Source: Chlorokybus atmophyticus
Lineage: Eukaryota; Plantae; Mesostigma and Chlorokybus algae
Direction of reading: 5' to 3'
DNA length: 64,000 bases
Assembly (NCBI GenBank): GCA_009103225.1
Contig: RHPI01000277.1
Location: forward strand, 518,074-582,073
Shown: in pieces, positions 2,696 to 58,226 of the stretch
How positions within the stretch are numbered: the stretch's first letter is position 1
Layout of the letters: each line of letters starts with the position of its first letter
Program-made: the position numbers and the translations under genes
The notes under the pieces: generated by a model
The model's database searches: none
The model's input: the letters and a program-made list of their open reading frames with translations, nothing else
What the model was told of the DNA's origin: nothing

Positions 2696-3152
2696 CCGCC
2701 TGAGGCGTGGGATGAGAGGGGAGTGAGCAGAGAGAGAGACAGAGGGAGGGAGTGAGGGAGGGAGAGGAGGGAGAGGATGAGGAGGGAGGGAGGGAGGGGG
2801 GCAGGGCGGGAGCACATACCGTATACAGGCTGCTGACTGCATGCCGAAGTTGTTGTGAAGGAACGACCAGGACTGACGCTGCTGCTGCAGTACAGGTAAT
2901 TGACTTTACCACTGGCATGCTTGTATGATCGACGGGAAAGGCCAGTGGAGTAGTAGTAGTTTGGGTAGTATAGCTCGGTGATGGATTGTATATCATATTA
3001 TGTTGTATGTGGGTTGTGAATGCCACCGTGTGCATAGTTGTGAACGCCACTGGTTGCATGTAGCATATAAGGCTTACAATCTTTTGACACTCCCCCACTG
3101 TACATGCATGCATCATGTTGTTCAGCATTGCGACTTGCTCCCGAAGACCCCN

Positions 3153-3458
3153 GAACAAGCCACAACGTTGCAATGAGAATGATGGGACACATTCGTGCTG
3201 CAAAACTAGTGCATGAATATGCCAGCGTGAGATGCCACGTACGAGAGCCAGGTAAGACTGTACAGTTGGAAGCATGCAATCGCAAACACAACTTGCTTCT
3301 GGCGTTGCATGCATACAGTACAGCAGCCGCGACCAATGCATACCTGGTGTGAGGGCTGCAGTGGTTTGTCACAACGCTCACCACAAGTGTGTGGTGCAAG
3401 CCATGGGTCACATCTGTCACAACATTATGAAGTTGATTCTCTGCATGCAGCACAGGAT
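3153..3458. repeat. 306-bp same-strand copy of 9204-9509 (NFXL exon plus intron pieces)
   Basis: Appears identical to 9204-9509. It starts right after a single N (3152) and ends in a C-run. Confidence 0.9.
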
Positions 3459-35537: not shown

Positions 35538-36804
35538 GTGAGCACTGCACGCAATCGTGATGAGTAGGACGTGGTGTTTGTGTGTAGTATTATGTGATAA
35601 TTGGACAACAACTAGTGGTTCTGGCGAGTGCAACTTGCATTGTTGCAGCCTGCATGGTTGGCATTTCAATACATTTTACATGAATGAATATATCTGACGT
35701 GGTCTGAGGGTTGCATAGTCAATGTTGGTCCACATGTTACTGTTTGTGGACTCTACATTGCAAAGGATTCCACTTCGCATTCACAAACTTGATTGTGTGC
35801 AGTGTGATACATGGGTGTGGTATGATTTCCTTTCCAATACATGGGGAGCAGTGCAATGCCCGTGTCGTTGAAGTCAAGAGCACATGGCCGCAGCAACTCA
35901 GGGAGTTTTTGCCGTGCTTGCCATGGTCTACGGCCTTTGTACGGCTGACGAAACCCTAAGTATGCAGTGGCAAAGGCAGCTGCGACAACAGCTGTCATGG
36001 TGGCGGAGGTTGGGAGCGGTGGCGGGGGAAGTCTGCTGGTCGTGGTGGTCATCAACGTGGTCCTACTCAAGGCTGACTCTACTGGCGATGTGGCAGGTAA
36101 TGCATGCTTGCAGACTGACAGGGTTGGGCAGTAAATTAGTGAAGTAGTAGGTAGTGTGCACCTAGCCCGGTGGTCGTGATAGAGGTGAGTGTGGTTGTGG
36201 TTGTGAGGTGTCTATGCATGTGTCGTGCATGTTGCATACATCACGTGCATATTCTGTGCACTATGCTTGCGCTGCAGCATATGCCCGAATTTTGCTGCTC
36301 ACCTCTCCTTTTCCTCTGCATGCGCTTAGCACGCATTTGCACACACATAGCTTGGTAGCCCATGTAGATCAGTGCGGTGGTACTGTTGGTGGTGGTGAAA
36401 TGCATGTTGTGATTGCAACATCAAGTGCCATGTAGTTATCTATCCATCAATCTGTACCGTATGCATTGCAATTCATCAACCAAGCCAAGGTCCAAGTTGT
36501 TGACAATGAATTGTGTGGCTCATGGTTAACACCATGTCTTTTAAATTACGACGAAGTAGACGGTTGTACCGATATTAGAAGCACTATAGTAGTGCTCAAT
36601 GAACAATTGGTTGTAATACACGCATCATAACGTAATGCACATGATATTGCGGTTTTCATCACAGTGAAACATTGTCAACTATACAAGGTTTGCGTGTTAT
36701 TTTGTTATTACAAATTTTTGTTTCAATCAGTGCACGGTATGGTAAACGCACGGTTGATTGGCCGTTAAATTCACATCATATCGTATTGACTTCGATTGAG
36801 CCCC

Positions 36805-37148
36805 NNNNNNNNNNNNNNNNNNNNNNNNNNNNNNNNNNNNNNNNNNNNNNNNNNNNNNNNNNNNNNNNNNNNNNNNNNNNNNNNNNNNNNNNNNNNNNNN
36901 NNNNNNNNNNNNNNNNNNNNNNNNNNNNNNNNNNNNNNNNNNNNNNNNNNNNNNNNNNNNNNNNNNNNNNNNNNNNNNNNNNNNNNNNNNNNNNNNNNNN
37001 NNNNNNNNNNNNNNNNNNNNNNNNNNNNNNNNNNNNNNNNNNNNNNNNNNNNNNNNNNNNNNNNNNNNNNNNNNNNNNNNNNNNNNNNNNNNNNNNNNNN
37101 NNNNNNNNNNNNNNNNNNNNNNNNNNNNNNNNNNNNNNNNNNNNNNNN
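36805..37148. other. Assembly gap (N run)
   Basis: Run of n. Confidence 1.
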
Positions 37149-37412
37149 CCCCTCCCACCCCACCCATCTGTATTCAACACCCTCCCTCCTCTATGTTAAA
37201 TGGAAAACACCAGCGCTTATTACATATGGGTTGAGGGTTTTGTGCAACGAGCGGGGGGGGGGGGGGCATAAGGTGCAAATGTGCAAGAATCCATGCATTT
37301 ACGTTGAATTAAGCCATTGAATCCCCAATTAACCAATCATGTGAACCATTAACTTAAATTGAGGGGCATAACTTTCAACTTCACCTACTCCACTACATTA
37401 CTGCAGGGGAGG

Positions 37413-37652
37413 TGTCGGGTCGAGGAGAGTCGAGGGTCACACTGTCTCGGGCCGCTGCAGGAATAGACATGCTTGCTAGCCCTGTCGCTGCAACATGTTA
37501 TAATATGTAGCAACAGTAAAAGATAACCCAGCTCGTATGGTGAGGAGTGCTTGGTGGAGCTGCTCCGTTGCCGCTGAGTCACACGGACATGTGGAGGCGG
37601 TGTCCTTCTTGGTGTACATGCTTTGCTGTAGGACACATAGTCAACAAGCCAC
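37413..37652. repeat. Terminal repeat unit B2 (~240 bp; copy at 38251-38491)
   Basis: Direct repeat of 38251-38491, roughly 90% identical by eye. Confidence 0.9.
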
Positions 37653-38248
37653 TACAATAGGTAGTGCTGTTTATACAGTTTTTTGAGCAGAAAATGTGTT
37701 ACACTGTTAAGTGAGGTGAATGAGCAAGCAACACGTGGATACTATGCCTTGACTGATGCCAACAAACACACTGCAACCAGGCACACCCAGCTCACAGCGA
37801 TGACAAGCACGATGCACACACGAGCATGCACAGGCTCTCACACAGTGAGGGGGTTCCTGGTAACCGGGATGGCGTATTCGCAGTTCAGTCACAAGTCGTT
37901 TCACAAGCTCTTAGCTTTTTTACTCACAATGTCACTAGCTGATCCGGTGAACACTGTGACTACTTATACAAGTCAAATCATAACTGTTTAGAACATAAGC
38001 TAACGGTCATATCGAGGCTATTTCCACCACCAATTGTCACTCTCAATATAGAACACAACTTATAACTAAACTCACAGCTGAACAGCTACGCGCGGTGCTT
38101 AGGTAGGCTATGGTCGTGAGCTACGCTGGGGTCATAACCTAGCTAGTAGTCAGTGACGCGCGCGCGATGGTATGCTGGTAGGCCGGGCGATGGTTTTGAT
38201 GTAGCCATGCTCGATGAAGACTGGTATGCGTGGGCAGTAGACATGACA
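37639..38248. repeat. Terminal repeat unit A2 (~610 bp; copy at 55029-55714)
   Basis: Direct repeat of 55029-55714, roughly 85-90% identical by eye. It overlaps B2 by ~14 bp (agtcaacaagccac). Confidence 0.9.
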
Positions 38249-38250
38249 GC

Positions 38251-38491
38251 TGTTGGGTCGAGGAGAGTCGAGGGTCACACTGTCTCGGGCCGCTGCATGA
38301 AGAGACATGCTTGCTAGCCCTGTCGCTGCAACATGTTATAACATGTAGCAACAGTAAAAGATAACCCAGCTCGTATGGCGAGGAGTGCTTGGTGGAGCTG
38401 CTCCGCTGCCGCTGAGTCACACGGACATGTGGAGGCGCTGTCCTCCTTAGTGTACATGTTGTGCTGTAGAACACATAGCATAACAAGCCAC
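38251..38491. repeat. Terminal repeat unit B1, immediately after a PPT-like G7 on the - strand
   Basis: Copy of 37413-37652; C7 at 38491-38497 is the purine tract on the element strand. Confidence 0.9.
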
Positions 38492-38559
38492 CCCCCCTGA
38501 GCTTCTGGGGAAGTTCCAGCTCCAGAGCTCAGCTGTTAACGCAGGTGAGGAGGACCGTT

Positions 38560-38705
38560 GGTGCGGCAATTGTCGCACCAGTACTCCTCCATGGGTATTG
38601 CGTCCAATGGGGGCTCCAGACAGTAGCAATGCAGGTCCTTGTTGCAGCCATTGCAAAGCATCATGAGTGCGTCGTCGCCGGCACTGACGCAGCATTCACA
38701 GCGTG
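38560..38705 (-). pseudogene. PHD finger at the end of the outer element's pol
   Basis: RCECCVSAGDDALMMLCNGCNKDLHCYCLEPPLDAIPMEEYWCDNC fits the C4HC3 pattern. Confidence 0.85.
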
Positions 38706-38804
38706 TGCTGCGGGGCGAGGGTGCTGGATGCGCGTGAAGCCCACTATGTAAGGAAGGTGACATGGCGCGCAGTTCACCATGTTGTCTTTCAACCTCTCGC
38801 CATT

Positions 38805-39260
38805 TTAACCAAGGAGGTCCAGCACTCCTGTGGGGTACACCTTGAGTACCTTGTGGACGGTGCGGCCCACGGAGGTGTCGAGCGTGTCTTGAGTGGCCGT
38901 CATGCGATAGGCAAAGTCCCCTGCTTGAAACCGCCGTTGACGCTCCTTGTAGAAGCCGCTCCGCACGCGCTCGTAACGCAGGGTGTCGCGGTGATGTGCG
39001 ATGCGCAGGTTGTTGAAGGCCATTGGGACGGTGTGCTCGAACAGCGTGGCGCGTGTGGTGATGTCGTGGTGCATCCAATCAGGATCGTCGAGGTTGTTTA
39101 CCACACGGTCTACTTCCTGCTGTGCACGAAAGGGAAGCAACGGCGGACGCCCAAACAGCAGGTAGTATGGGCTGTACTCGCGCAGAGCCGCCAGCTTTTA
39201 CTTGTCGGGGTGCACTGTCATCCCCACCCCCTTGAGTCTTTCCAGCACTTCCTCGATGTG
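38805..39260 (-). pseudogene. RT end fused to the integrase C-terminal tail (RNase H and integrase core deleted)
   Basis: HIEEVLERLKGWG(fs)MTVHPDK is joined directly to LAALREYSPYYLLFGRPP...NLRIAHHRDTLRY...FQAGDF. Confidence 0.7.
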
Positions 39261-40650
39261 TGTTACGGTCTAGCTACTACAGCTGGTCATGTACAGTGTA
39301 TATATAAGTTGAATTAGCGAGAGACAAAAGTTTAATGAACCTTGGTTGGATTATTTTGGTTTGTTATACAAGCTTTAACACGAATACAATGCAACGCTAA
39401 TTATAGGCCTGGCTAGTTAGAGCATTTGCATCTAATTAGAAGTGGTTGACTAGGAATTACCCTATTCATGAATGTATGGGCGTCTTGAGTAGGAAGATAA
39501 AAGCACATGGCTCTAGTATAATGATTTATTAACGCGATGTGGGCTTATGGGGCCAATCGTGTGAAACATCATAGGCAGAAGCATGTGTAATTATAAGGTT
39601 CATCTAGGCCAATCCAAGGCGGCTTATTTGGATCAGATGAATAGAGCGAAGTAGTCTCTCTTAGGGTGAACAAAAAGGACTTCGCGAAATGAGTTCGCGA
39701 AGGGGTTGATTCACCTGCGAAGTGAATCAACATAGTGAGCTAAATTAGTTCACTAGTTCAGTTACGAACATGAACTAAAATAGTTCACTAAGGGTTCGTA
39801 AGTGAACTAAAATAGTTCATTGGTTCAGTTACGAACATGAACTAAAAGTAGACATGAACTAAAAGTAGACATGAACTAAAAGTAGTTCACTAAGGGTTCG
39901 TAAGTGAACTAAAATAGTTCATTGGTTCAGTTACGAACATAAACTAAAAGTAGTTCAGTAAGGGTTCGAAGTGAACTAAGTGAACTAAGTGGACTAAGTG
40001 AATCACCCTAATTTGAAAGGACTAATAGAAGAGGGAGCCAATAGTGAATCACTGGTGAACTAAGTTAGTTCACTAATGGAGTGATTCATAAAGCCGACAG
40101 GGTAGTGAACTAAAGTTGATTCACTAGTGAATCAACTATTAGATCACTTCGCGACGCGACGTCGCGACAGAAAATCGGCTAAGGCATTTGCCCCCTCCCG
40201 CGTGTGCCGATACGCAGCGCGTGACAGCGCCGTCTGCCATGGCCGCAAGCACAAAAATCGCGGATTGGCATTATTGGTCACTTTGCTGAATGCCAGTGAA
40301 CTAATGCCGAGTGAACTAAACTAATCACTTGGGTGAGTGAATGGGGATCTGGTAGAGGGCTTTGAACCAAGTAGGTCTTAGCCAAGATAGTTCCTAGTAA
40401 AGCTCATGGCGATGGATTTCGCCATTAAAAAGGAGCCAGTCGCGGGTGGAGGGTAGCCGCCGCACGACTTGAGTTCTGGGCTTTTGGGACTAAGGTAGGG
40501 GTACCTAAGCTAGGTGACCATAACCCTTAAGTTGCCAAGTAGTTGTTCACTCAACGAAAGGTGGTTAAGGGAGTGTACAGTCACTACATGTTAAGTGTGT
40601 GATCACTGTACATAGTTTTAAGTGATAATTACCCCCCGCCCGGCGTAACA
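39261..40650 (+). repeat. Chromovirus 5' LTR with internal subrepeat array
   Basis: Direct repeat of 45886-47871, apart from the TRIM insertion and indels. Confidence 0.95.
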
Positions 40651-40740
40651 GCTGGTATCGGAGCTTGGACATACGATTTTGAACCACTCAGGCTGTGGTT
40701 TGGGGCCACTTTGATTCGGAAATTAGCGCTTCCGAAGTGC

Positions 40741-41973
40741 ATGCCGAAACAACGCCGGATTGGACATTATCACAAGTGGCGTGAGACTTTTAGTAGTAGC
40801 GCCAGTGAAGAGGATTACCGCGAAAAAAAAGCCTACTTCGAAGAAAAAAGGCTAGTCGCGGCAATGGCGGATCAGGCGGAAGCTTCGGATCCACCGATTC
40901 CCCAGCTAGGGAAAAAGATGGAACGAAGAATAGCCGAGTTGTCGCCGAAGTACAAGAAAATAGCCTTGGCTTGTTGCAAAGAGGGCAAAAAGGCCAAGCA
41001 AGGCATCTTGAGGCTAGTGAAGAACCTCGAGAAGAATGAGGAGGAGCTCACGCACCTCCGTGTCCTTGGGGAGCAGAAGATGAAAGAACTCGAGGACAAA
41101 ATAGACTCGGTCCAAGTAGGACCAAGTACCAAGTTTCTAAAAATTCCCCCGGCATGGACAGGCAAAAAAGGGGAGGATATAGACGCTTGGTGGAACCAAG
41201 TCGAAGTGACTTTGGCTACGGTTCCAGAAAGGCAAAGGTTGGGTTTTGCCGCGGGATACTTAGGTCCAGAACCACTTCAGTTGTGGAAGGACCATAGGTC
41301 TCATTTGGTTGAGCCCACCTTTGAATCCCTGAAGGAGTTTTTGTTTAGCCAATATAGGACAGTGGACCCCGGGCTTGATGCCAGGGATAAGCTATCCGAT
41401 TTGAAACAATCGGGCAAGTTGATCACGGAATTTGTGAGCCAATTCAACCTGTTAGCGGCTCAAGCTGCAAATGGGGGAAGGCCACTAAGCCTGATTGAGA
41501 AGGCCAACCTATTCATTCGAGCCTTGGATTCTAAGCTCCAAAAGCAACCAGATATCATGAGGTTGCAAAAGACCAATATAGAGTGGACTCAGGAGAAGTT
41601 CACGGAGCTTGAGAATACGGCGAGATGGGTCGGCCGGAATTTGGCTAGCATTAACAAAAGGGATAGAGAAGAGGGTGGAGACAAATCCGGGGGAGGAAAG
41701 GGAAAGAAAAGAAAAGGATTTGCCCCTCAATCGGAGATGGAAAGTCCGGTTGAAAAGGAGAAGTCTTCAAAGACCCCTCTAAAGAAAAAGGGTAAAAAGC
41801 CGTTTGGCAAGAAACCCTTTAAGCCAGCCTACCAGGGCAAGGCAAGACTCTCCAGTGAAGAGAAGGAGAGAAGAGCTCGGGAAGGTTTATGCTTCATTTG
41901 TGGCGAAAAGGGGCATATAGCCTCCAAGTGCCCGAAGAAGGGAGCAAAGCCAACCGAGGATCCCACCAAGTGA
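40741..41973 (+). CDS. Chromovirus Gag
   Basis: Open frame with a retrotrans_gag-like core (DAWW...FESLKEFL...DARDKLSDLKQSGK...FVSQFN), Lys-rich linker and CCHC knuckle CFICGEKGHIASKC. The start codon is uncertain. Confidence 0.9.
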   Translation: MPKQRRIGHYHKWRETFSSSASEEDYREKKAYFEEKRLVAAMADQAEASDPPIPQLGKKMERRIAELSPKYKKIALACCKEGKKAKQGILRLVKNLEKNEEELTHLRVLGEQKMKELEDKIDSVQVGPSTKFLKIPPAWTGKKGEDIDAWWNQVEVTLATVPERQRLGFAAGYLGPEPLQLWKDHRSHLVEPTFESLKEFLFSQYRTVDPGLDARDKLSDLKQSGKLITEFVSQFNLLAAQAANGGRPLSLIEKANLFIRALDSKLQKQPDIMRLQKTNIEWTQEKFTELENTARWVGRNLASINKRDREEGGDKSGGGKGKKRKGFAPQSEMESPVEKEKSSKTPLKKKGKKPFGKKPFKPAYQGKARLSSEEKERRAREGLCFICGEKGHIASKCPKKGAKPTEDPTK

Positions 41974-44900
41974 CGGTGTGGGGTGGTTGCTTGTATAGGA
42001 ACGGCGCCAAAGGAGCAAAGTAGTGGGCGACTTGAGAACAATAGTTGTATAGCTACAACGATGAAGTTGCCTATGAAATGCGATGTTTGTTTTAGGAATG
42101 AGTTTGGAGATTTGCCAAGAATTAATTCACTTGAGGTAGGGCACGAGCGAATTCTCATATGCGTGCCGCTTCGTGAGTTAACAAGTACTTTGACAAATTA
42201 TTGGCAACTAAAGCAAACTAACCCCGAAATTAAGGCGTGTGTTCTAACACCTAAATATTATGGTAAGTGGAAAAGGTTGTTAGGCGGTATGCGCCGTATG
42301 GGCACATTACCAAGGGCCAAATCACCTTTTGCCACTGACTTGCAAATATGGTGTGATGATGCAAGTGATCGCCGAGGTTCACAAATAAATCCTAGGCTAA
42401 GTATGGTCTTCGATGCATTAGTGAATGAGAGGGCGTGTGGTGTCTTAGTTGACACTGGTGCCTTAGAAAATTTCGTAAGTGCCGAATTGGCAAAAAGGGT
42501 CTCGGCCACCATTGAAACTACCAATGCTAGGGCAAGCCTAGTAGGTGAGTTACATTGTGAAGTAAGTGGCGTGACAGAGTTGCTAATTCGAATGGGGGAT
42601 TATAGGACCAAAATTAAGCTGTATGTGGTCAAGTCCCTTATTCCAGGCATAGACGTGATATTAGGTGATAGTTGGCAAAAGCACGTGAAGTTAGAATTAA
42701 CAAGCGTGCCACCTTCTATTACAATCACACAAGGTGACAAGCGTTTTGCTTTGACACCTAGTAGGAACCGTAAGCCTAACAGAAGGAGTAAACCCACCAT
42801 TGACCCAGTTGATCAATGGTTAAAGGGTGACTCCAAATTGGCTGTAGGTTGCCTAAGTATAGTGGGGGACTTGGAAGAGTCAAGTGAAATTGATTGGGAA
42901 AAGGTACACCCGGTGGTGAGGGAGTTTATGGATATATTCTCCGCGGATCTACCAAGTGCACCGGCAAATAGGTTTGTGTCCCATTTAATCCCACTAAAGA
43001 AAGGGGCTGGGCCTCCGCCGATAAGGCCAATATATAGGCTAAGTCCCAAGGAACGAGACGAAGCAAAGAAGCAGGTGGACTATCTCCTAGAAAGGGGTTT
43101 GATAGTCGAATCGCAAAGCCCCTATTCGGCTAATGTAATTTTTGCCGAAAAGAAGGGAGGCAAGCTCCGAATGTGTGTTGATTATAGGTCATTAAATGCA
43201 CAAACGGTGATGAATGCCTTTCCCTTACCGCGTTTGGATGATTTGTATGATCAACTAGTTGGGAAGTCGTGGTTTAGCACCCTCGACCTAACTAGTGGTT
43301 ATCATTAAATACCTATCGCGATAGAAGATAGGTATAAAACCGGGTTTAAAACCTATATGGGTCATTATGAATATACGGTGATGCCATTTGGCTTGTGCAA
43401 TGCGCCGGCCACATTCCAAGCGGTAATGAATGAAGTATTTAAAGAGGAGGTAGGGAAATTCGTCCTAGTGTACTTGGATGATGTTATTGTATTTTCAAGT
43501 ACAAAAGAGGAACATGTGCTTCATTTACGAAAAGCCTTGAGTAGGCTAAGGGAGCATAAGTTCTTGGCGAATATCAAGAAATGTGACTTCTTTGCTATGG
43601 AAGTAGAGTACTTGGGTAATATTGTGAGTGAAGAAGGAATAAAAGGCGATCCAAAGAAACTCGAAAGGGTTAAAGACTGGGCAGTTCCAAAGAATGTAAC
43701 GGAGTTACAGAAATTCTTGGGTTTTTGCCTATGGTTCCGCCGTTTTATTTTAGGCTATTCAATTATAGCCGCCCCACTCACTACTTTGACAAGTACCCGA
43801 AACCCCTTCGAATGGGGTCCTAAGGAGCAACAAGCCTTTGAGAGGCTTAAGGCTGCTATGACCTCACTTCCGGTATTGAAGTTGCCGGAAATGGACAAGC
43901 CATTTGAGGTAATAAGTGATGCCTCTTTGGCAGGAACCGGGGCTATACTAGTGCAAGAGGGGCATCCAGTAGCCTTTGAGAGTTTCAAGTATAAGCCCGC
44001 GGAGAAGGAATACTCGACCACCGATCAAGAATTATTAGGTGTTGTGAAGGCGTTGCATAGATGGAGGTGTTACTTGGAGGGGAGGCATTTTAAGGTGATA
44101 ACAGATCACAACCCCTTGGTACACCTAAATACGCAACCTAATTTGTCGCGACGCCAAGTAAGGTGGCATGAGTATTTGGTGCGATATGATTTTGATTGGG
44201 AATATAGGCCAGGTAGGATAAATGCGGCAGATCCTTTAAGTAGGCATCCCGCATTATCCGAGGATTTGGCGTTACTTGCATTGGATTATGTGAGTGATAT
44301 TCCTAACCAAATGATCGCAAGTTATACTAATTGCCCGGAGTTCCTTTTGGAGTTCAACCAAGTGTTAAAACCACATGGGGCATTTTGGTATAAAGATGAA
44401 GAAAAGATTGCGGTTCCAATGGATGGGTCACTTAGGTCAAAGGTGATTACAGAATCACATAATCCCCCTTACCGTGGCCATTTTGGTATAAGGAAAACTA
44501 CCGAGTCTTTGGCTAGGAGGTATTGGTGGCCGACCTTAAGAGTGGATGTTGAAAGCTTTGTAAAGAATTGTGACTCATGCCAAAGGAATAAATCCGTAAG
44601 GGCAAAACCGGCCGGGAAGTTACAACCTTTGTCCATACCAGAGGGGGCTTGGAAGTCAATGTCTGTTGACTTCATAGTCCAATTACCTAGAACGGTAAAA
44701 GGGAATAATGGAATGGTTGTATTTGTAGACCGGTTTAGTAAGGTTGTTCACTTAGAACCAACTCCTCCAAAATTTACGGGCGAGGATTTTGCCCATGCCT
44801 TTTTCAGGAGATGGTACTCACAACATGGGATGCCCGTGGATATGATTTCGGATAGGGATTCGCGGTTCACTTCCGCCTTTTGGCGTGAGTTATGTGATAC

Positions 44901-45726
44901 ATTAAATTTGGATAATAAGTTATCCACCGCGTTTCATCCTCAAACAGATGGGCAAACCGAGCGTGTGAATCAGACAGTGGAACAACTATTGAGGCATTAC
45001 TCACTAAAGAATATTAGAGATTGGGATACATATCTCCCTTTCGTTGAGTATGCCATCAATGATTCAGTGAATGAGTCAACGGGGATGACACCATTTTATA
45101 TTGGTTATGGCCGCCATCCATTGAGTCCAGTTGAGGCTTTAATGGAGAATATGGGGGCTAGGAAAAGAGTCAACCCCTCGGCTCAAATTTTGGCTCAACG
45201 ATTAGGGCAGGTGCAAAATGAGGCCAAGAGGGCCTTACTAGCAACCCAAAATCGTATGCGTCAATATGCCGATGCCAAGAGGGCAGAGGCCGTGTTTGAA
45301 GTGGGACAAGAAGTCCTACTTAGCACAAAGAATGTGAGGATGGAGTCTCTCGATGGGGCCCGAAAACTATTACCCCGATGGCTTGGACCATTTAAGGTAG
45401 TAGAAAAGATAGGGGCTGTGGCATTCAAGTTAGAATTGCCACCGAGTCTTAAGATACATAATGTATTTCATGCCTCGCTATTGAGAGCCTATCACTCAGA
45501 TGGGTCGGTGCAGCCACCACCACCCCCAATGTTTATAGAAGGAGATTGGGAGTATGAAGTGGAGGGTATAATAACCCACAAAGGCCGGAAAGGCAGATCT
45601 CCCAGTTACTTTGTGAAATGGAAGGGTCATCCGTTCGAAGCATGTGAATGGGTTGACGAACCTAACATGCGAGCACCACTTCTGATAAAGAAATATTGGA
45701 GGGAGCTAACGGTTGCCCAAAGATGA
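41974..45726 (+). pseudogene. Chromovirus Pol (PR-RT-RH-INT-chromodomain) with one in-frame nonsense codon
   Basis: LVDTGA; LDLTSGYH*I (TAA 43306-08 where CAA is expected); YLDD; ISDASLAG; H...H/C..C zinc finger; VDF...DRD; GQTERVN; GPF; C-terminal chromodomain YEVEGI...YFVKWKG...EW. Confidence 0.93.
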
Positions 45727-45885
45727 AGTCCATGAAGGTCCATTTCTGAAGATATATATTTTCCGCCTTTAGAAGTAGTTCCACGTTTTGACCTATCAAG
45801 TTACTGATCATGGCTTGTTTCCCTAGGTTTGAAAGCGTGGAGAAAGAAATTGAGCAGAGACGCTCAATAGCTAAAGGGGGGGCAT

Positions 45886-47871
45886 TGTTACGGCCTAGCT
45901 ACTACAGCTGGTCATGTACAGTGTATATATAAGTTTAATTAACGAGAGACAAAAGTTTAATGAACCTTGGTTGGATTATCTTGGTTTGTTATACAAGCTT
46001 TGAAGGCGTGTGTTTGTGTTTGAGCTTTAACACGAATACAATGCAACGCTAATTATAGGCCTGGTGTAACGGGAAGGTACATTAAATTACCACAAATCGA
46101 CCATAAAAGCACCAAGTCTTTTGTGGTCGAGTGGGCTGTGACATTGGTATCGGAGCTTGAGACCCGGGTTCGATTCCTGCCTGCACACGAATTCCGCGGT
46201 CGTTGTTTCTCGATCCAATAATCGTAAATGGTCACTTTATGAGTGCCATCATCGATGGGTCGCGACCTGCCTAATGGCAGTCGCGCCGAAGTGACCTGAC
46301 CAGTTCAGTCGGCGCGGCAGGGCGCGACCTGCCTATCGCGGCGACGCGACCTGTGGGGCCGGCAGCGGAGCGCTATGCGCGCGTTGACCGGTATGGGCCT
46401 ATATTGGCCGGTCCTTGGCTGTGGGGCCGGTGACCGACCCTAACAAACCCCTTGGGTAATTCCCCAGCTGACCGCGCAGCTGCCGAGGACGTCAGCGTTC
46501 TTAAGTGGGGGGGAATGTAACGGGAAGGTACATTGAATTACCACAAATCGACCATAAAAGCACCAAGTCTTTTGTGGTCGAGTGGGCTGTGACACCTGGC
46601 TAGTTAGAGCATTTGCATCTAATTAGAAGTGGTTGACTAGGAATTACCCTATTCATGAATGCATGGGCGTCTTGAGTAGGAAGATAAAAGCACATGGCTC
46701 TAGTATAATGATTTATTAACGCGATGTGGGCTTATGGGGCCAATCGTGTGAAACATCATAGGAAGAAGCATGTGTAATTATAAGGTTCATCTAGGCCAAT
46801 CCAAGGCGGCTTATTTGGATCAGATGAATAGAGCGAAGTAGTCTCTCTTAGGGTGAACAAAAAGGACTTCGCGAAATGAGTTCGCGAAGGGGTTGATTCA
46901 CCTGCGAAGTGAATCAACATAGTGAGCTAAATTAGTTCACTAGTTCAGTTACGAACATGAACTAAAATAGTTCACTAAGGGTTCGTAAGTGAACTAAAAT
47001 AGTTAACTGGTTCAGTTACGAACATGAACTAAAAGTAGTTCACTAAGGGTTCGTAAGTGAACTAAAATAGTTCATTGGTTCAGTTACGAACATGAATTAA
47101 AAGTAGTTCACTAAGGGTTCGTAAGTGAACTAAAATAGTTCATTGGTTCAGTTACGAACATAAACTAAAAGTAGTTCAGTAAGGGTTCGAAGTGAACTAA
47201 GTGAATTAAGTGGACTAAGTGAATCACCCTAATTTGAAAGGACTAATAGAAGAGGGAGCCAATAGTGAATCACTGGTGAACTAAGTTAGTTCACTAATGG
47301 AGTGATTCATAAAGCCGACAGGGTAGTGAACTAAAGTTGATTCACTAGTGAATCAACTATTAGATCACTTCGCGACGCGACGTCGCGACAGAAAATCGGC
47401 TAAGGCATTTGCCCCCTCCCGCGTGTGCCGATACGCAGCGCGTGACAGCGCCGTCTGCCATGGCCGCAAGCACAAAAATCGCGGATTGGCATTATTGGTC
47501 ACTTTGCTGAATGCCAGTGAACTAATGCCGAGTGAACTAAACTAATCACTTGGGTGAGTGAATGGGGATCTGGTAGAGGGCTTTGAACCAAGTAGGTCTT
47601 AGCCAAGATAGTTCCTAGTAAAGCTCATGGCGATGGATTTCGCCATTAAAAAGGAGCCAGTCGCGGGTGGAGGGTAGCCGCTGCACGACTTGAGTTCTGG
47701 GCTTTTGGGACTAAGGTAGGGGTACCTAAGCTAGGTGACCATAACCCTTAAGTTGCCAAGTAGTTGTTCACTCAACGAAAGGTGGTTAAGGGAGTGTACA
47801 GTCACTACATGTTAAGTGTGTGATCACTGTACATAGTTTTAAGTGATAATTACCCCTCGCCCGGCGTAACA
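45886..47871 (+). repeat. Chromovirus 3' LTR (carries the TRIM insertion)
   Basis: Matches the 5' LTR, with an extra 27 bp near its start, more subrepeat sequence and the TRIM. Confidence 0.95.
46065..46594 (+). mobile_element. TRIM (miniature non-autonomous LTR element), 530 bp
   Basis: 79-bp LTRs TGTAAC...GTGACA at 46065-46143 and 46516-46594 (one mismatch), PBS TGGTATCGGAGC, G-rich PPT before the second LTR, 5-bp TSD CCTGG and no ORF. Confidence 0.95.
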
Positions 47872-48418
47872 ATGTGCTGCAGATGCTCGTCGTTACTGCG
47901 GCTGAAGATGAGAATGTCGTCAATGTAGCATCGCGCAAAGTCCAGCCCCCTCAAGGCTTTGTCCATGACGCGCTGGAACTTGGCAGGAGCGTGCTTCAGT
48001 CCGAAGGGTATGACCTTCCACCGGTACAGCTGCCGGTTGCCCCAGAAAGAGGTCTTGTGCTTGTCCTCCTCCTTGATGGCGATCTGGTTGTACCCTTGTC
48101 GCATATCCAGGATGCTGACGACGGTGCAGTCTCTTACATCATCAAAGATACCCTCTGCAGTAGGCATTGGATACCTGTCTTGTTTGGTCTTGTTGTTGAG
48201 GGGGCGATAGTCGCCGCACATGCGCCGGTCTGTCAGTTGCCTGCCGAATCCTTCTTTAGAGGCATGACGGTCGCGGCCGCAAAGTCCGGTGTGGACTCTT
48301 CAATCAGGCCTGCATCTAGCAGAGCCTTGCACCTCTGCTCCACCAAGTCTTCTTCCAACTTGGAGAGTCGGTATTGTCGTCGAAACACCGGTTCGGTGTC
48401 CACCAACTCGATGTCCAT
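47872..48418 (-). pseudogene. Reverse transcriptase of the outer element (frameshifted, interrupted)
   Basis: QYRLSKLEED, RMCGDYRPLN, LDMRQGYNQI, PFGLKHAPAKFQR, YIDD; continues at 39260 beyond the chromovirus. Confidence 0.92.
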
Positions 48419-48739
48419 ATAAGTAAACTGAGCAAACGCCTAGTTCATTTCATACGTTGAAACTGAACTGCCTTCTCCACTTGTTGAGGAGAGCCTCTAG
48501 TTGTTCTCATATCTGGCCTGTAGCCAGTGGTCCAATGGCATGGGACCAAGAGGTGGCGTTGGCGACCACTGGGATGTCCTCCACAGTGACTGTTGCCTGC
48601 TCCTCCATATGGGCGATTTCGAGGGCGGTGTGTGCCGCTTTGGTCTCTTGCACGAAATCGGCCCACCCCCCCGCCAGGTGTTCGAGCTCCTGAAAGGACA
48701 CATGGCGGACTTGGAGAGCAAAGCACATTTTATATAACC

Positions 48740-49680
48740 ATACCATACTGTTCTGATCCAGGCGCGTCCTAACAATTGGCATTGCTGACTGTCGGTCAGC
48801 GTGGAACATTATACTGCCTGGAGAGAAGCCCATGGCGCGTTCGCGCTCACGTGCGTTGGGTTCCTCCAGCTGGCCTGTGTTGGAATCCAACACCATGCCT
48901 GCGCTGTGGTTGCGGAAGGTGTATGATCCTGAGCAAGACATTGGAGTGGGGAGCGCACGACGTGGTTGACCAGGCTGGTTGCACTGGTAGAAGTGCTGGT
49001 GATTGTGTCAGGTGATTGGTTGTGATGTGCGCCCGAAGTCCAGGATAGCGTCAACGGTCAGATCGCGTGGACGACTGCTGTGTAGATATTCAGCAGCGAA
49101 GAGATCTTCAACTGTTGCCAGGTTGGTCCACTTGGCGCGAACGCGATCAGCATGGGAGCCATACCACGCTGCGCTGATTCTGAGAGGATGTCCTAGTAAA
49201 GAAGACACCTATTGGAAGCTGTTGGCCACGTGATGGCGCTTATCATCCTCGGAGTGCACATTCTCGATGATGTATCCTGGACAGCTGGCTGCTCTGCAGG
49301 ATTTTGATGACACGCATCAGTTCCCAGAACAGTCGTGAGCGAGGATCAGCGAGTCCTTGGCCGCTGCATGCTTTGGAGTGTCCTTGACACTCCCATCCTG
49401 CTATCAGCAGGACGATGTTGCCCATTGCTAGGAGGTGATCCGCAGTGATTAAACGGATGTCCTGTGGCAGTGCCTTCAAACTGCCTTGCAGTGCCGATAG
49501 CGGCAGTCGCTGCGGGTAGCATTTGTGTAGGTGGCGCAGGTGGTGGCCCAGGGCAATCTGTGCGTGCGGATCAGGGTCACAGTAGAAGTACTTGGTGACC
49601 GTTGCACTGGTGTTGAGAACAGCGGCGAGGCCACTACCTATTCCTCCAAATAGTTTTAACACGGTGATGCCTTGTTGGCG
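48740..49680 (-). pseudogene. C5-cytosine DNA methyltransferase domain within pol
   Basis: Motif I LFGGIG, motif IV GWECQGHS (Cys retained), GLADPRSRLFWE, motif VI YIIENV, motif VIII GSHADRVRAKWTNL and motif X region EPNARERERAMG; several frameshifts. Confidence 0.88.
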
Positions 49681-50199
49681 ACGGAATATGTGAAACTCCA
49701 CTACTCCAGTGGCCACGTGGTGTGAAGTGAGCCGTGGTCTGATCAGTAGTAGATGTACGACCACCTATACGCGCCAGCGGCGTTCCGCTGGTTTCTGGTG
49801 GGCCACTTCTTCAGTGGCATCTTCCTAAGACTCGTCATATGGGATAGGAGAGTCTTGGTCCGAGTTGTGGGTGACCACCGCATATGATCTGTCAATGGTT
49901 GTCGAACCCAACCTGTGGGTGGCTGTCGCAGCTGACCTGTTAGTGGTTGCCGACAACGACCTGTAGGTGGCTGTTGCAGCTGACCTCCGATGTGGACAAA
50001 TGCGAGCCACCAGTTTGAGAGGCATATATCCTTGAACCTCTCCGTCCTCCTCATCCCAATGAGGACGAAACCATGCCTTTTCTGTCTAGCAGTCCAGCTC
50101 CATGCCAACAGAGAAGTTGAGAGCCTGTCCCAACAACAAGTCGAAGGATCCTCCGTCGGTGACCACACACTTTTGACCTCGGTGCTGTGGGACGAGTCC

Positions 50200-50420
50200 A
50201 CTCCTGTCAAGCGAATGCAAAGGGCTTGCTTGGTGATGCCAAGCACCTTGTCACGGCTGCCGGTTGCGGTGTCGAGCACGTATGGGCACGGCATCAGCTT
50301 AGCGCTGGTGATGCCAAGGTCACGTCGTGCAAGGTAACGTCCAATGATGACAGGCTGGGCTCCGGATTCCAGCATCACCCGCTTGGGTGCTCGTCCATTG
50401 ATAGTGACATGCTTGCCTTG
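50200..50420 (-). pseudogene. Retropepsin-like protease of the outer element
   Basis: INGRAPKRVMLESGAQPVIIG (degenerate D-S-G). Confidence 0.65.
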
Positions 50421-52575
50421 ATTGGCGATCATAACTGCGTTGGCGTGGATGCGCAGCCGCTTGAATCGTCGATAGCGTGTGCGTGGGGTGACTGCTGCTG
50501 CAGTCTCCTCCGGTGGTGTCGAGCGCAGTGCGGCAAGCACCCCTCAACCAGCTAGGTCTTAAAAACCGCCTTGACTGCGGCTTGGCCCGAACCGTCCTTG
50601 TCTTGGCTGTTGATAAACACGCTGTGGCCTGGGTGCTGACGGTGCTGCCTGTGGCTGCCCTGGTTGTGGCACAGGGGGATTGCGTCTCTATGTGGCCGGG
50701 GTCAAATCCTGGCGGCGTAGCCAGTGGCTGTTGGGGAAACCTTGGAGAACCGGGTGTTTGTGGGCCCGCCTCCCGTGCAGCCTGTTCTTTCACATAAGTC
50801 CAGCGCACTGCATGAGCTGCCTCCATGACCAGTGTACCTTCCCATGTGGCTGTTGGGTTGTTGACCACGTCACTCCAGCGGTGATTCTGAGGCATGGGCT
50901 CGAGATACACTGCGTGTAGGAGCCGCGCTCTTATATTGTGGGTGATGGTGGGAACCCTTAGGATTCCTTCCATGTAGGCATCCCACTTGCCATTGCCCAC
51001 CCCCACTTCCAGCATCGTTGTTGCTCGCGCCCGCACAGTGAGGTAAATCTCTGGCTGTTAAATATGCTGCTCGTAAGCAGCTGCGATGCGTCTGCGTTGC
51101 CGCGCTGCTTCCACCCCTGGCAACCTCAATATGGCCTCTTGTGCTCCTTCAAAAGTGTCAGTGGTTGCCGAGGCAACCTAATCATAGGCTTGCCGTAGCG
51201 AGCGCAGGAAGGCGTCCAACCAGAACAACCTGGTGCCGAATGCGAACAGGGGAACTGCGCGGTGATTGGTGACTAGCCAAGTCACCAGTCTTGCTCGAGC
51301 TGCATTACCACCTTCCCGCATCCCCAACATTCGTCTCAGGCCGATGCTTTCTTATCGGTGCAGCATGGGTGCTTGTCGCAACAAGGCTGTGCGAAGTTGC
51401 TATTCCCCGATCGAACCTGCTACATCTCGTTGTGTCCACCCTTGCGGTGTGAGGTAGCCTCTCCCTGAATCCCGTTGATCTTTAGGCAAGTCTTCCAACA
51501 AGGCGGGTAGTAGCGGGGCGATCACCCCCGTGGTTTGTTGGGGCAGCGCCCTCGTCTGGTCACTGTCGGGCCCACCGACGAGAGGTGTCGTACTGGATGA
51601 TGGGCCAGCGCTAATGGGTTGAAAAACGCCAGCGCGAGCATTGGCAAGGGCGTGTGCTCTTGCGTCGGTTGCTGCTGCTTGGTCCTGTCGCCAGGTGAAC
51701 GCCTGTTCCAGCGCGGTTTAGCGCTCATAAAGTTGAACGGTATTGAGGGGCCTCAATGCTTCGTTGTCACCCAGAGGCATGTCGGCTGTATCAGCAATAC
51801 GCTGCTGTACGTTGAATTATCGGTCCCAATGCGTGTCCAGTGGGCTGGGCTCAAAGGGTTCATGACGGACTGGTGCGGGTTGGCGTGGCGCCGTCTGCAT
51901 GTCGTTATGCAGAGTCCAAAACAACTGTAGTGCCAACTCCAGTACAACAGGTGTTCTGACTACGAAGACACGGTCTCACATGAGAGGCGCCGTGCCGGCG
52001 AGGATTTTATTCTCCAGTTGCCGCTGAGTCTGTTCTGGCCGCGTGTAATATTCAGGCAGTGGGAAGACTCGGTCACTGCGTTCAACGTGTGTTGTGCGCT
52101 CCCCTCCGCGCCCAAAAGCAATGGTAGTGGGATCTGCTCCACGCATGATGGTCTCCCAAGCACGCTCAGCTTGCTGACCTCGCGGGACAGCTTGAGTGAC
52201 ATCGAGGGCGGGCAATGTAGCTGCGCGTGTCGCTGCGGTGGCAGCAGGCTCGACGATGGCATTGCCGGTGGTGGCGAGAGTGCCGCTCAATGGCGCGAGG
52301 GTGGTCTCAACGCTTGCTGACATAGGTGGTCCTGCAGTTGGAGCGGGACCGGTGCGACCTACTGCTGCAGGGTCGGTGACAGCAGTGGATGTTGCCTGCG
52401 TGCTAAGTGGTGTTGGCGCGACGGTGCTCACTGGCAGACCAATTTCGGGTGAAATTGGAGCTGTTGCTGCTGATGTTGACGGAGTCGATGGCGTAGCCGG
52501 TGTAACTGTTGCTGCGGGTGCAGCACCATTGGTGGCTTTAAGGGAGGTAGCTGCTGACGATATTGCGATTTTCCC

Positions 52576-54613
52576 TCAAACTCGTAGGGATGGTCGAAAA
52601 CGCGACAGAGTGCTGGTATCTCTCGTGCGCTTTGGAGCCATTAGTGCCCACCAGGCCGAGTAACAGGTGCGGTAGTCCTGCTCCCTATCTTCATCTAAGC
52701 ATGCCATACGCGCCATAAGGGCAGCCATATGGTCATCAGCTGGCGGGTTGGCTGGAGCCTTGGCGGCAACAGCAGCAGTGTGCGGACGTCCTTCCAGTCC
52801 CTTGCGCTGAGGAGGGCGATTCTTCCCCCTGTAGCCTTGCTCTTCCTTGCAAGCGTTGGCGTAGTTGTTGGTGTTGTTATGGCCTCCGGTGTGATTGCTG
52901 TTGTAGCCACCAGAGTTGTTGCCGTTGTGGCCTCCAGTGTTGTTGCTGTTGTAGCCACCAGGGTTGTTGCCGTTGTAGCTGTTGACGGGTCTCAACTCAG
53001 GGAACTTGAGCCAGCAGATTGACTTCAAGTGGCCTATCTTGTGACAGTATGCGGAGACTGTTGAAGGACTAGCATGCACATGTAGTTAAGGCAAGCATAG
53101 ACACAAAGAGACAGAGCTACCGCCACCAGAGCATACACAAGTCACATCACATTCATCTATTACAAGTTGTCCGCTGGTTCTTATACCAGCCAGTTACACA
53201 CACGTCTACGTTTGCAAGCACTGCGTAAGCTGTACTCAGCCTTTTGACGCGCTCTAAGCTGTGTTGTCTTTCTTACAATCAGAGCTTTCCAACAAGCACT
53301 TACACGCCTAATATGAGTAAGTATACGCGGAGATACAAAGCAGTTAGCAAGGCTCCAGTCTGGAGTCCGTAGGCTGGTCCGACGACGCCATCTTGCTAAG
53401 TCCGGACCTAGTGCTCATCCTTACGACCTTCTACTCCTGTGTGGAGGGTCGATGCTGATTGTATGTAGGAATGACTCTCAACAGAGACCAGAGTTGAGTA
53501 CTCTTCGGTGCACTCCTTTTGGTAGTGCCCATGCCGTCCACAGCAATGACACAGCACAGGGGCAGGCAAAGCAGTATGCGCTGACCGTTTCCCTTTGTCG
53601 CATGCTGGTGGAGCGTCCCGGCCACGTTCGCGACGAGGAGAATCGACGGTCGTGCTGGCTACAGGCCGTGAGGTGCTGCGGTTGGTGTCGAGCACTGCCT
53701 TCTTATACACCAAGCACTTATGGATGGCTTGTGCAGTCTCAAAAGCTTCCTTGAGCGTGTAGCCAAGGGGCCTGCTGTAGTTCAGGGTCAGGCGCGTCAA
53801 CTCGCTCAGGCTTGCATCCAACTCATTGACATATACCACTGCAGCCGCCTCGTCACTGACGATATTGTAGTCAGTGTCCTTCAATAGCCCTTCCAGTCTG
53901 GAGTACAGGCGTAGAGGGTCCTCATTGGGCTTGTGTCGGAACCGCCTCAACTCCTCCAATTTGCTAGTGGTCTGCGGTGGGAAGGTGCGACGAAGTGCAG
54001 TATAGATCCTTGAGTGGAGAGTCAGAGATGGCAGCACCTACAATGATGGTTGGTGCGCGCAGTGCAACTGACCCGAGGGTGAAAGCACTGCCTCCCGCAC
54101 GAGAGCCAGGTGTTGCCAAAGGTAGGGGTGTGCCCACCTCAATTGCTGCTGTTCGTTGTTCCTCAAAGATTGCAGCAGAACGGTCCAGGATCCGGGCCCG
54201 CCGCGCGGCCGTCTTGATCTCAATCTCTGCAGGGGTCAGGTTGGCAATCACCAACTCAGGTTCCTCCTCCTCTGCTCTGTCGGTGGCTGCCGCTATAGAC
54301 AACCCGGTGACTGCAGCGGGAGTGGCAGGTGGAAAGACGGCTGCTGGACTGTGCCGTGACGCAGATGCTATGGTACTGGCAAGCTCGCCATAGCCATCAA
54401 CTCGATGCAGTTAAGCAACAGACTTCCAGACATCATGTGCCTCATGGTCCATATACTGAGCAGCAATGTGAAAGAAATCTCATCTGACCAGTCTTTGTTC
54501 TTCAGAGCCTGCTGTCGCATCTTGGAGTGGAACTTGATGATGATTTGGTCCAGCGAGGTAGTGCCAGCACATCCGGAGAAACGCAGGGACATGGTTGAGC
54601 TAAAAGACTCCAT
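52576..54613 (-). pseudogene. Gag-like region of the outer element with two zinc knuckles
   Basis: LEELRRFRHKPNEDPLRLYSRL (gag-like), CHCCGRHGHYQKEC, a second degenerate knuckle SAYCHKIGHLKSIC and an Asn/Gly repeat; frameshifts. Confidence 0.7.
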
Positions 54614-55028
54614 CTCGTAGTCGTCACTGTCGGACGAGAGTGGGGAAGCTTGATGCCGAGGAGTGGACAGGAACGGAGTGAAGTCGGAGACAGAACGCGA
54701 GCCTCTGCTGCTACGATCGTTGCTCCCGTCACTGGTCCATCGTAGGTGAGGTTGGAGGTTGGGCTTCAGCTGCTGAGGTCACCTTCGTATGGGAGAGAAC
54801 GGGGTGGGCCTGCTCATACAGCTAGTCCAAAGGTGAAAGTGTATGCAGGGTAGAGTGTTTGTGCTTTATCGCCTGTCTCAATGCCGCTACCACTCACCAC
54901 TAGTGCTTGTGTGCGCACTATGTAATGATAGTGATAACGAACCGCACAGGGATGTGTCCCCAGATACAGACTGCACTATCTGATTCAAAATGCAACGCAC
55001 TCACTTGAGCAAAGAGGGTGACACTGTG

Positions 55029-55714
55029 AGTCAACAAGCCACTACTATAGGTAGTGCTGTTTACACAGTTCTTTGCATGAGCGGAAAATGTGTTACACTA
55101 TTAAGTGAGGTGAATGAGTAAGCAACACGTGGATACTATGCCCTGATTGATGCCAACAAACACGTTGCAACCATGCACACCAAGCTCACAGCGATTACAA
55201 GCACGATGCACACACAAGCATGCACAGGCTCTCACACAATGAGGGGTTTTTTAGTAACCGGGATGGCGTGTTCGCAGTTCAAGTTGTTGCACAAGCTCTT
55301 AGCTTTCTCACTCATAATGTCACCAGCTGATCCGGTGAACACTGTGACTACTTATACAAGTCAAATTATGACTGTTCAAAACATAAGTTAACGTTCATAT
55401 CGAGGCTATTTCCACAGCGATTGTCACTCGATATAGAACACAACTTATAACTGAACTCACAACTTAAGCTAACGGTCATATCGAGGCTATTTCCACAGCA
55501 ATTGTCACTCGATATAGAACACAACTTATAACTCAACTCACAACTGAACAGCTACGCGCGGTGCCTAGGTAGGCTATGGTCGTGAGCTACTCTTGGGTCA
55601 TGACCTAGCTACTGGACAGTGACGCGCGCGCGCTGGTATGCTGGTAGGCCGGGCGATGGTTTTGATGTAGCCATGCTTGATAAAGGCTGGTATGCGTGGG
55701 CAGTAGGCATGACA
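55029..55714. repeat. Terminal repeat unit A1 with an ~80-bp internal tandem duplication
   Basis: Copy of 37639-38248; the segment ...catatcgaggctatttccacagc...cacaacttataact... occurs twice (~55385-55545). Confidence 0.9.
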
Positions 55715-56099
55715 GAGGGGATGGCAATAACTTGCAGCAAAGAGGCGAGTGAGTATAAAGTTACCATATAGATTGAGTGTATTACAGTGTATAATGGTAT
55801 TGTACAAGGAGGATGCATAACTTATAGGTTAATAAGCTAAAGCTCAGAAGCTAATTAACAAATATGCCATAATAGCAGGCAAACTCTACAACAAGGCAAG
55901 GGCGTAGCTCACCATAGTTCACTAAATCCTCATATGTGCACAAATTGTATACATTACGGTCATACCATGTAGTCACACAGCTCAGATATACCATAGTTCG
56001 CGTGCCACCTGCAGCAATGCTGCTAAGGGATGGCTTATGCAAGGAGGGAACGAGAAAGGGGTCAAATTGTAGTGGGAGGGGCGTACCTAACGTAATATG

Positions 56100-58225: not shown

Positions 58226-58226
58226 N

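Follow-up and report, generated by a model that had tools for sequence, protein, structure and literature searches.

The element described here lies on the minus strand of a 64,000-nucleotide stretch of the Chlorokybus atmophyticus genome (contig RHPI01000277.1, positions 518,074 to 582,073; hereafter the window, in whose numbering its coordinates are given throughout). It is a dead copy of a Ty3/Gypsy-clade retrotransposon in which the direct repeats are split, running A1-coding region-B1-A2-B2, and the same layout recurred in 22 distinct metagenome loci. A DDE integrase very probably acts at a palindrome inside the repeat, where B1 meets A2. That a circle forms before this cut was judged slightly better than an even proposition. 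The full reading, in which self-priming yields a linear complementary DNA (cDNA) with B-GC-A repeats, this cDNA becomes a two-repeat circle and the circle is cut by the integrase at its internal palindrome, was likewise favoured by a modest degree. The broader proposition, that this is a streptophyte Gypsy clade with attachment (att) sites inside its long terminal repeat (LTR), which can propagate only if its own D-34-E integrase reopens a two-LTR circle at a templated palindrome, is tentative and falls a little short of even.

The order along the element was A1, gag remnants, protease, C5 methyltransferase, reverse transcriptase (RT), integrase tail, PHD, G7, B1, GC, A2 and B2, with the following features:

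55715..55718, no strand: target-site duplication (TSD) GAGG on the element's 5' side, from flank comparison
55029..55714, minus: A1, beginning TGTC, the element's 5' end, from repeat comparison; predicted to bear the promoter
55352..55356, minus: TATA-like box; the predicted start follows 32 nt downstream
55334..55348, minus: duplicate primer-binding site immediately upstream of the primer, with folding predicted between the two
55310..55324, minus: predicted transcript 5' end and self-primer, pairing with 55017-55031 (13 Watson-Crick pairs and one G-U of 15)
55017..55031, minus: predicted primer-binding site at the boundary of A1 and the internal region, 12 nt outside A and three inside; not tRNA-like
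52576..54037, minus: gag remnants with two zinc-knuckle-like motifs (the intact relative L004 likewise has two)
50238..50408, minus: aspartic protease remnant (PF13650, E 0.0012, below cut-off)
48675..49677, minus: C5 cytosine methyltransferase domain, frameshifted, from Pfam and comparison with relatives
47872..48439, minus: N-terminal part of RT, with YIDD, from Pfam and comparison with relatives
39261..47871, plus: nested chromovirus-type Ty3/Gypsy element, outside the family, with two ordinary LTRs and the TSD ATGTG
39198..39260, minus: last RT remnant and deletion joint, where the RT end, RNase H and integrase core were lost
38805..39197, minus: C-terminal tail of the DDE integrase
38566..38700, minus: PHD finger at the end of pol, frameshifted here (PF00628, E 4e-7)
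38491..38497, minus: G7 polypurine tract, predicted plus-strand primer; a G-run adjoins B in 22/22 relatives
38251..38490, minus: B1, putative first half of a hidden 3' LTR, starting directly 3' of G7
38245..38254, no strand: putative att junction, the B1/A2 palindrome with its CA-GC-TG core (2-nt spacer at 38249-38250)
37639..38248, minus: A2, which would complete the hidden 3' LTR as its second half; the TATA-like box (37968-37964) and the primer segment (37936-37922) recur in it
37639..37652, minus: A2/B2 joint, where the A end and the B start overlap by 14 nt; varies in relatives
37413..37652, minus: B2, ending in GACA, the element's 3' end, from repeat comparison
37409..37412, no strand: TSD GAGG on the element's 3' side, from flank comparison

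The coordinates given in a preliminary description of this DNA for the four repeat segments, GAGG, the G7 tract (38497-38491) and the palindrome all hold, as do the span of 37409 to 55718 and the absence of TGG after A1; that description did not mention the nested chromovirus, a 1.7-kb deletion or an assembly overlap at 58227-64000. A1 (55714-55029) and A2 (38248-37639) were 91.9% identical (554/603 aligned), A1 containing an extra 81-bp tandem copy, while B1 (38490/1-38251) and B2 (37652-37413) were 94.2% identical (226/240); the copy is therefore old. Its outer ends were TGTC...GACA, flanked on both sides by GAGG (37409-37412 and 55715-55718), and extension of this duplication to 5 bp produced mismatches. 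At the B1/A2 junction, ACAGCTGT was located at 38246-38253. This sequence is not rare per se, having four occurrences in the window; it is considered non-random because of its position and its conservation across families. In the window's family, 14 nt were common to the A end and the B start (10 in the window's B1), an overlap that could aid end joining.

With the nested 8.6-kb insertion subtracted, the element proper was 9,686 bp. Of the coding content proposed previously, the C5 methylase, RT and PHD domains were confirmed by Pfam in the window's open reading frames (ORFs), the protease remained under the cut-off, gag gave no Pfam match above it, and the integrase tail was identified through its relatives; protease, RT and tail were kept in Ty3/Gypsy order. 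Comparison with proteins P0003 and P0004 showed that approximately 1.7 kb, comprising the RT end, RNase H and the integrase core, had been deleted at 39198/39199. A description of these repeats as an ordinary A+B LTR whose 5' copy has been truncated was entertained and rejected, the G-run preceding B1 and the primer site following A1.

Metagenomes were searched with a profile of the integrase tail, and the best 80 of 316 confirmed loci were analysed, loci with the same flank being merged before 3' ends were counted. The dominant family, F1, was AT-rich, close to proteins P0013 and P0017, and approximately 45% identical to the window's tail. It provided 37 distinct 3' ends, of which 22 were G-run-B-NN-A-B and 14 were G-run-B-GACA, with one cut by the contig end within A2; thus, the order A-ORFs-G-run-B-NN-A-B recurred in 22 distinct loci, with TGTC/GACA ends, and L008 showed the junction at the end of its contig. 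All 22 F1 junctions had GACA-NN-TGTC in register, six of them perfectly and the remainder with substitutions that were mostly transitions. The same junction was present in L004 and L041, from other subclades, approximately 100–145 bp after a G-run. Families bearing the junction were about 45–53% identical in protein, and none of the 80 loci matched the window's repeats significantly at the DNA level, so that only the palindrome and a few adjoining bases are conserved; GACA-NN-TGTC was common to four subclades with no other shared repeat sequence detected.

Every copy with its repeats in view was either A-ORFs-B-A-B or A-ORFs-B, and two complete terminal direct LTRs, that is, ordinary A+B repeats, were never met. 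Among 12 elements with both ends available (the window's and 11 loci), eight had an exact 4-bp TSD, two matched at 3/4 positions and two did not match; no exact 3-, 5- or 6-bp TSD was found in the nine F1 rows tested, and the target sequences were mutually unrelated. The earlier suggestion of a one-off integration of a 2-LTR circle at a cryptic att site is refuted by the 22 further loci; the 4-bp duplication proved to be recurrent. One A-ORFs-B copy, L055 (5260–5290), started at a second TGTCA, approximately 10 nt before the primer site, and had an exact 4-bp TSD; this start is either a cryptic site or the result of later deletion by microhomology.

A DDE-type integrase had been proposed from the RT and the tail, with a domain check against a tyrosine recombinase as the means of deciding, and its presence in relatives bears this out. 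A protein search with the RT returned 33 proteins, four of which were rescanned for domains; rve was detected in 11, PHD in six and C5 methylase in four. A tyrosine recombinase was found in none of the 33, in none of 75 ORFs from five loci (including all 15 of the intact L004), and in none of 23 ORFs from the window. The window's integrase tail shared 43–50% identity with the stretch following the rve core in P0003, P0004, P0008, P0009, P0011, P0013 and P0018. Contigs from two other runs departed from the window exactly at the deletion joint (six in run X1, five in run X2), showing that other copies continue past it, and their continuation, translated by hand, resembled the end of the relatives' integrase core. 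A further X1 contig, at a depth of 74, skipped 307 bp (38633-38941) over the integrase tail and PHD start, and is possibly an amplified deletion derivative.

L004 was intact, encoding gag-protease-methylase and then RT-RNase H-H2C2-rve-PHD. The order protease-RT-RNase H-integrase was present in L004, P0002-P0004 and P0011, none of which had a detectable chromodomain, and relatives possessed a DDE integrase with an H2C2 domain. The L004 core could be aligned with the integrases of Ty3 and foamy virus, the residues D, D and E coinciding. The second D and the E were separated by 34 residues in all 49 relatives with a detectable motif, compared with 35 in the nested chromovirus; both the Ty3 and the foamy-virus alignments required the same one-residue gap, and the spacing in this clade is thus one shorter (L004, 7123–7635; proteins P0003-P0114). 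A literature search on D-34-E spacing in LTR elements found no report, one unexamined candidate aside. In L004 the methylase closes ORF1, a single in-frame stop (5083–5085) separating it from RT, and pol could be expressed by read-through or separately. An RT tree of 22 rows, with one long-branched outgroup, no reference lineages and six motif-less rows dropped, placed the window loosely with P0002; the named RT neighbours were proteins from Closterium, Coleochaete and Calypogeia. No named Klebsormidium nitens protein was among the protein-search matches, and the tail alone as query matched nothing among longer proteins or in viral contigs.

Self-priming of the Tf1 type is predicted for the window's family and its relatives from complementarity between the bases following A1 and a stretch within A. 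Of 12 A1 ends, 11 had their best-pairing site 31–33 nt past a TATA-like box; eight of the 12 paired at 12–15 of 15 positions, which at most two of 300 shuffles equalled, and pairing peaked at the A boundary. L004 paired at 19/20 positions and L053 at 12/12, each with a different primer sequence; four families (the window's, F1, F2 and that of L004) had four different primer sequences. L041 had a 14-bp inverted repeat of similar span, where the TATA was not clear. A further copy of the primer site, lying just upstream and predicted to fold onto the primer, was present in three of four families; it would hide the primer in the copy at the RNA 3' end. Folding of the whole leader returned a long-range stem in both families examined, with a folding energy that was unremarkable in the window (z = -0.93) and reached significance in L067 alone (z = -2.78). 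The missing tRNA site in the window is explained by the predicted self-primer. B also contained a 13/14 copy of the primer-site region near its 3' end (37431-37444 vs 55012-55025).

The layout can be accommodated by the following series of events. RNA would start approximately 32 nt past the TATA-like box in A1, and its first 12 or so bases would pair just after A1 and prime the minus strand. Minus strong-stop DNA would jump to A2, and the G-run would prime the plus strand at the first base of B1, as in standard LTR reverse-transcription chemistry, producing (B-GC-A)-internal-(B-GC-A), the ends of which would lack TG and CA. The copied repeat would be bounded by the G-run, where B1 starts, and by the primer, where A1 finishes; it is B-GC-A, which would leave B2 untemplated, and the A2/B2 joint must then form afresh. 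The A end would be joined to the B start, either blunt or via microhomology, and B2 would be the U3 start of the 5' LTR of the cDNA, brought to its present place by this joining. Integrase would then nick each strand of the conserved ten-letter palindrome GACA-GC-TGTC after its CA, with loss of the two spacer bases in repair, and opening at the palindrome of the 5' repeat would insert the molecule as A-ORFs-B-GC-A-B with a 4-bp duplication. The inserted copies that are observed have TGTC...GACA ends and 4-bp TSDs. The 2-nt loss at ACA^GC^TGT envisaged in the preliminary description is supported. That description took the palindrome to be the end-to-end junction of a circle; we infer instead that it is copied from RNA inside a hidden LTR (B-GC-A) and that the end-to-end cDNA joint is A2/B2. 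Copies of the form A-ORFs-B may derive from the cutting of a one-repeat intermediate, or from later B1 x B2 recombination.

Nine forms of the A2/B2 joint occurred among the 22 F1 loci (eight loci were blunt, seven had a 2-nt overlap, and seven had single forms with insertions or deletions), while the first six bases of B1, abutting the polypurine tract, were free of indels in the same set. The joint thus varies, as would be expected of a repair joint, while the junction keeps a single register. Two of its three insertions consisted of T or TT; as the primer site begins with T, they might be primer remnants, though the hint is a weak one. Larger losses at the joint were seen in L017, L061 and L033, and two starred sister groups differed in joint form. 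The A-ORFs-B copies were scattered on the tree (13 changes, inside the shuffled range), which fits the pattern expected of repeated dead-end products.

Several observations weigh against the series of events proposed above. The circle, the transcript end and the cleavage are all deduced from inserted copies, and inserted copies fit 'join, then cut' and 'cut, then join' alike. The window copy has no DDE motif of its own, owing to the deletion at 39198/39199. Four of the 12 A1 ends paired no better than shuffles, and a looser scan fired at 13 of 309 control TATA sites. The star-like tree of joint forms required four changes, and 95 of 500 shuffles had four or fewer. The full layout was seen in only two of the families examined: family F2 had A-ORFs-B at 6/6 ends and zero junctions, L041 had no B2 within 1.29 kb, L004 ran from the junction into A and then the internal region (probably a collapsed assembly), and the junction was not found in L054 or in L066/L069/L072. 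Lastly, the mirror layout, A-B-GC-A-ORFs-B, which is also expected if a circle has two equivalent sites, was absent from all 16 visible 5' ends; among two-repeat elements with both ends in view the count was seven to zero (one-sided p = 0.008, calculated by hand assuming equal use). The two palindrome sites must accordingly be used unequally. Speculatively, the 5' site might be favoured if the 5' repeat became double-stranded after the second jump, long before the plus strand had crossed 9 kb and completed the 3' repeat.

The order of joining and cutting is also what separates the proposed circle from an alternative that we regard as rather unlikely, in which integrase cuts the palindrome in linear cDNA and inserts both new ends, leaving the host to repair the break between A end and B start, with no free circle. 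The ends, the TSD, the invariant junction and the variable joint would all be the same, and the larger losses in L017, L061 and L033 suit repair of a chromosomal break. Copies of the form A-ORFs-B (14/37 ends in one family and 6/6 in another) could arise from the cutting of both sites in linear cDNA, and the L055 start at a second TGTCA, with its exact TSD, could point to separate processing of the left and right ends, but is equally explained by later deletion between two TGTCAT copies. Against this, every insertion would leave a double-strand break, and the 14 nt common to the A end and B start in the window's family resembles a joining device.

A templated circle after the manner of PAT and Ngaro is distinctly improbable. 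Here, RNA would run from A1 to B2, the A/B joint would be inherited, RT would close the circle by switches on B1-A2, and a DDE integrase would replace the tyrosine recombinase. The repeat layout is identical to that of PAT elements (PMC4157794). Two joint forms account for 15 of the 22 loci, and their spread on the tree is compatible with inheritance; the 14-nt overlap of the window's family could likewise be fixed, one X1 contig joint suggesting that other copies share it. However, the predicted primer site exactly at the A1 end and the G-run at the B1 start define B-GC-A as the unit, leaving B2 uncopied; nine joint forms stand beside a single junction register; and the primer-hiding hairpin predicted in three of four families fits an RNA with 3' redundancy in A2. 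There is scarcely any probability left for a one-off or artefact (an aberrant insertion or rearrangement of an A+B LTR element, misassembly near the N gap at 36805-37148, or a tyrosine recombinase acting in trans), since, although the element ends 260 bp from that gap, the window has two assembly overlaps and the copy is deleted and frameshifted, the layout exists in 22 independent loci and a published family, contigs of runs X1 and X2 span the B1/A2 junction gap-free with zero coverage of the flanks, TSDs match on both sides of the element, and a recombinase in trans is contradicted by unrelated 4-bp TSDs and an intact DDE core, tyrosine recombinases not being known to leave a TSD.

Runs X3-X6 contained almost no sequence words of the window element. 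The architecture itself is already in print as KnitGypsy-Dnmt3 of Klebsormidium nitens, which has repeats arranged as in DIRS and Gypsy-like domains (de Mendoza et al. 2018, PMC5890265, Fig. 4c legend). The window element, compared with that description only, is probably of the same kind: it has the DIRS-like repeat arrangement and, together with its relatives, a C5 methyltransferase in a polyprotein with Gypsy domains. The portions of PMC5890265 describing KnitGypsy-Dnmt3 mention neither termini nor a TSD, and are likewise silent on a junction palindrome, a priming site, a PHD and a mechanism. In literature searches that left most subscription journals and Repbase outside, the name occurred in one paper only and no mechanism was described for split or permuted LTRs in Gypsy elements.

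Split direct repeats of the order A1-coding-B1-A2-B2, with an internal copy of the end-to-end junction, are described for PAT/TOC/Kangaroo and Ngaro elements (PMC4157794), with which the window element shares the A1-B1-A2-B2 order, and split repeats with an internal junction copy are likewise given for SymbioDIRS-Dnmt3 (PMC5890265). In contrast to PAT/Ngaro, the window's clade has a DDE integrase, TG...CA ends, a 4-bp TSD and a polypurine tract, and a tyrosine recombinase was not found among the proteins and ORFs scanned. Ty3/Gypsy features were present in the domain order, the DDE and H2C2 domains (of relatives), TG...CA ends and a TSD within the 4–6 bp range, but the two full LTRs were not. 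The clade would appear to work like Ty3/Gypsy with relocated attachment sites, and lies outside PAT/Ngaro with respect to its recombinase.

In Tf1, the RNA's initial 11 bases are reported to pair with the primer site and to be freed by RNase H (PMC7175516, PMC4600332). The window's clade resembles Tf1, Tf2, Tj1 and Tcn1 in that its RNA is predicted to begin with bases complementary to a site just after the 5' repeat and in having no tRNA site (PMC7175516, PMC4600332, PMC6317226); as described there, those elements differ in having two complete LTRs and integrating natural ends. Compared with the Tf1 group, the predicted duplex here is 12–15 nt rather than 11 and the integrase ends in a PHD finger. 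Foamy-virus integrase is reported to cut the palindrome of a circle junction, with 2 nt between the CAs (PMC1180852), and HIV 2-LTR circles can be reopened and integrated (PMC4372172). The cut proposed here would be similar, a DDE integrase acting on a palindrome with CA on both strands and the bases between being lost. In the reported viral cases, the palindrome is made by ligation and a normal provirus results by a side route, whereas here the palindrome would be templated inside the repeat, the ligated joint would be elsewhere, and every viable copy would depend on the cut. The Phygy elements of Physcomitrella are bryophyte non-chromovirus Ty3/Gypsy elements of similar length, also with a 4-bp TSD, but are described with two full LTRs, tRNA-Trp sites (81%) and NCGN targets (PMC6317226); no tRNA-Trp site was met here, and none of eight exact TSDs was NCGN.

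Whether LTR circles serve retroviruses as integration precursors is an old question, with evidence for a side route only. If the reading of a circle cut at an internal palindrome is true, the clade would provide the first case of an LTR element that must integrate by way of the 'dead-end' circle, and a living model of how PAT/Ngaro split repeats could come from an ordinary LTR, whether a tyrosine recombinase was acquired later or not at all; it would offer a simple path between the two. Its inserted copies would form a natural record of internal cutting, and the intact L004 makes the question testable. Programs that demand two full LTRs, such as the search described in PMC6317226, would overlook this clade. 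A cytosine methyltransferase and a PHD finger are further parts of its coding content.

Elsewhere in the window, 58227-64000 was a 100% copy of 50165-55938 (5,774 bp) following a single N at 58226. An apparent third copy of A (63091-63777) falls within this assembly overlap, and was rejected as evidence for a second element. Another overlap, also after a single N, comprised 306 bp, 3152-3458 matching 9204-9509 at 100%. The nested chromovirus (39261-47871), inserted on the opposite strand into the RT of the outer element with the TSD ATGTG, was nearly intact, having a stop in gag, one in RT, and a chromodomain; its LTRs were 93.3% identical and contained a 68-bp tandem repeat in unequal copy number. 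Its 3' LTR contained a 530-bp insert (46065-46594, plus strand) resembling a terminal-repeat retrotransposon in miniature, with 79-bp LTRs, the TSD CCTGG and a TGGTATC primer site followed by a piece like a tRNA T-arm; ARAGORN detected no tRNA in this insert. At 35986-35999 (plus strand), 450 bp past the PI4-kinase stop codon, a 14-nt match to the element junction in sense, CAACAGCTGTCATG, had no repeat partner within the window, and could represent the junction of a related element that extends into the N gap, or be due to chance. Three host genes in exons were recognised, encoding PI4-kinase alpha (29007-35537, plus strand), a vasohibin-family domain (21293-21790, plus strand) and NF-X1-type zinc fingers (7053-8209, minus strand).

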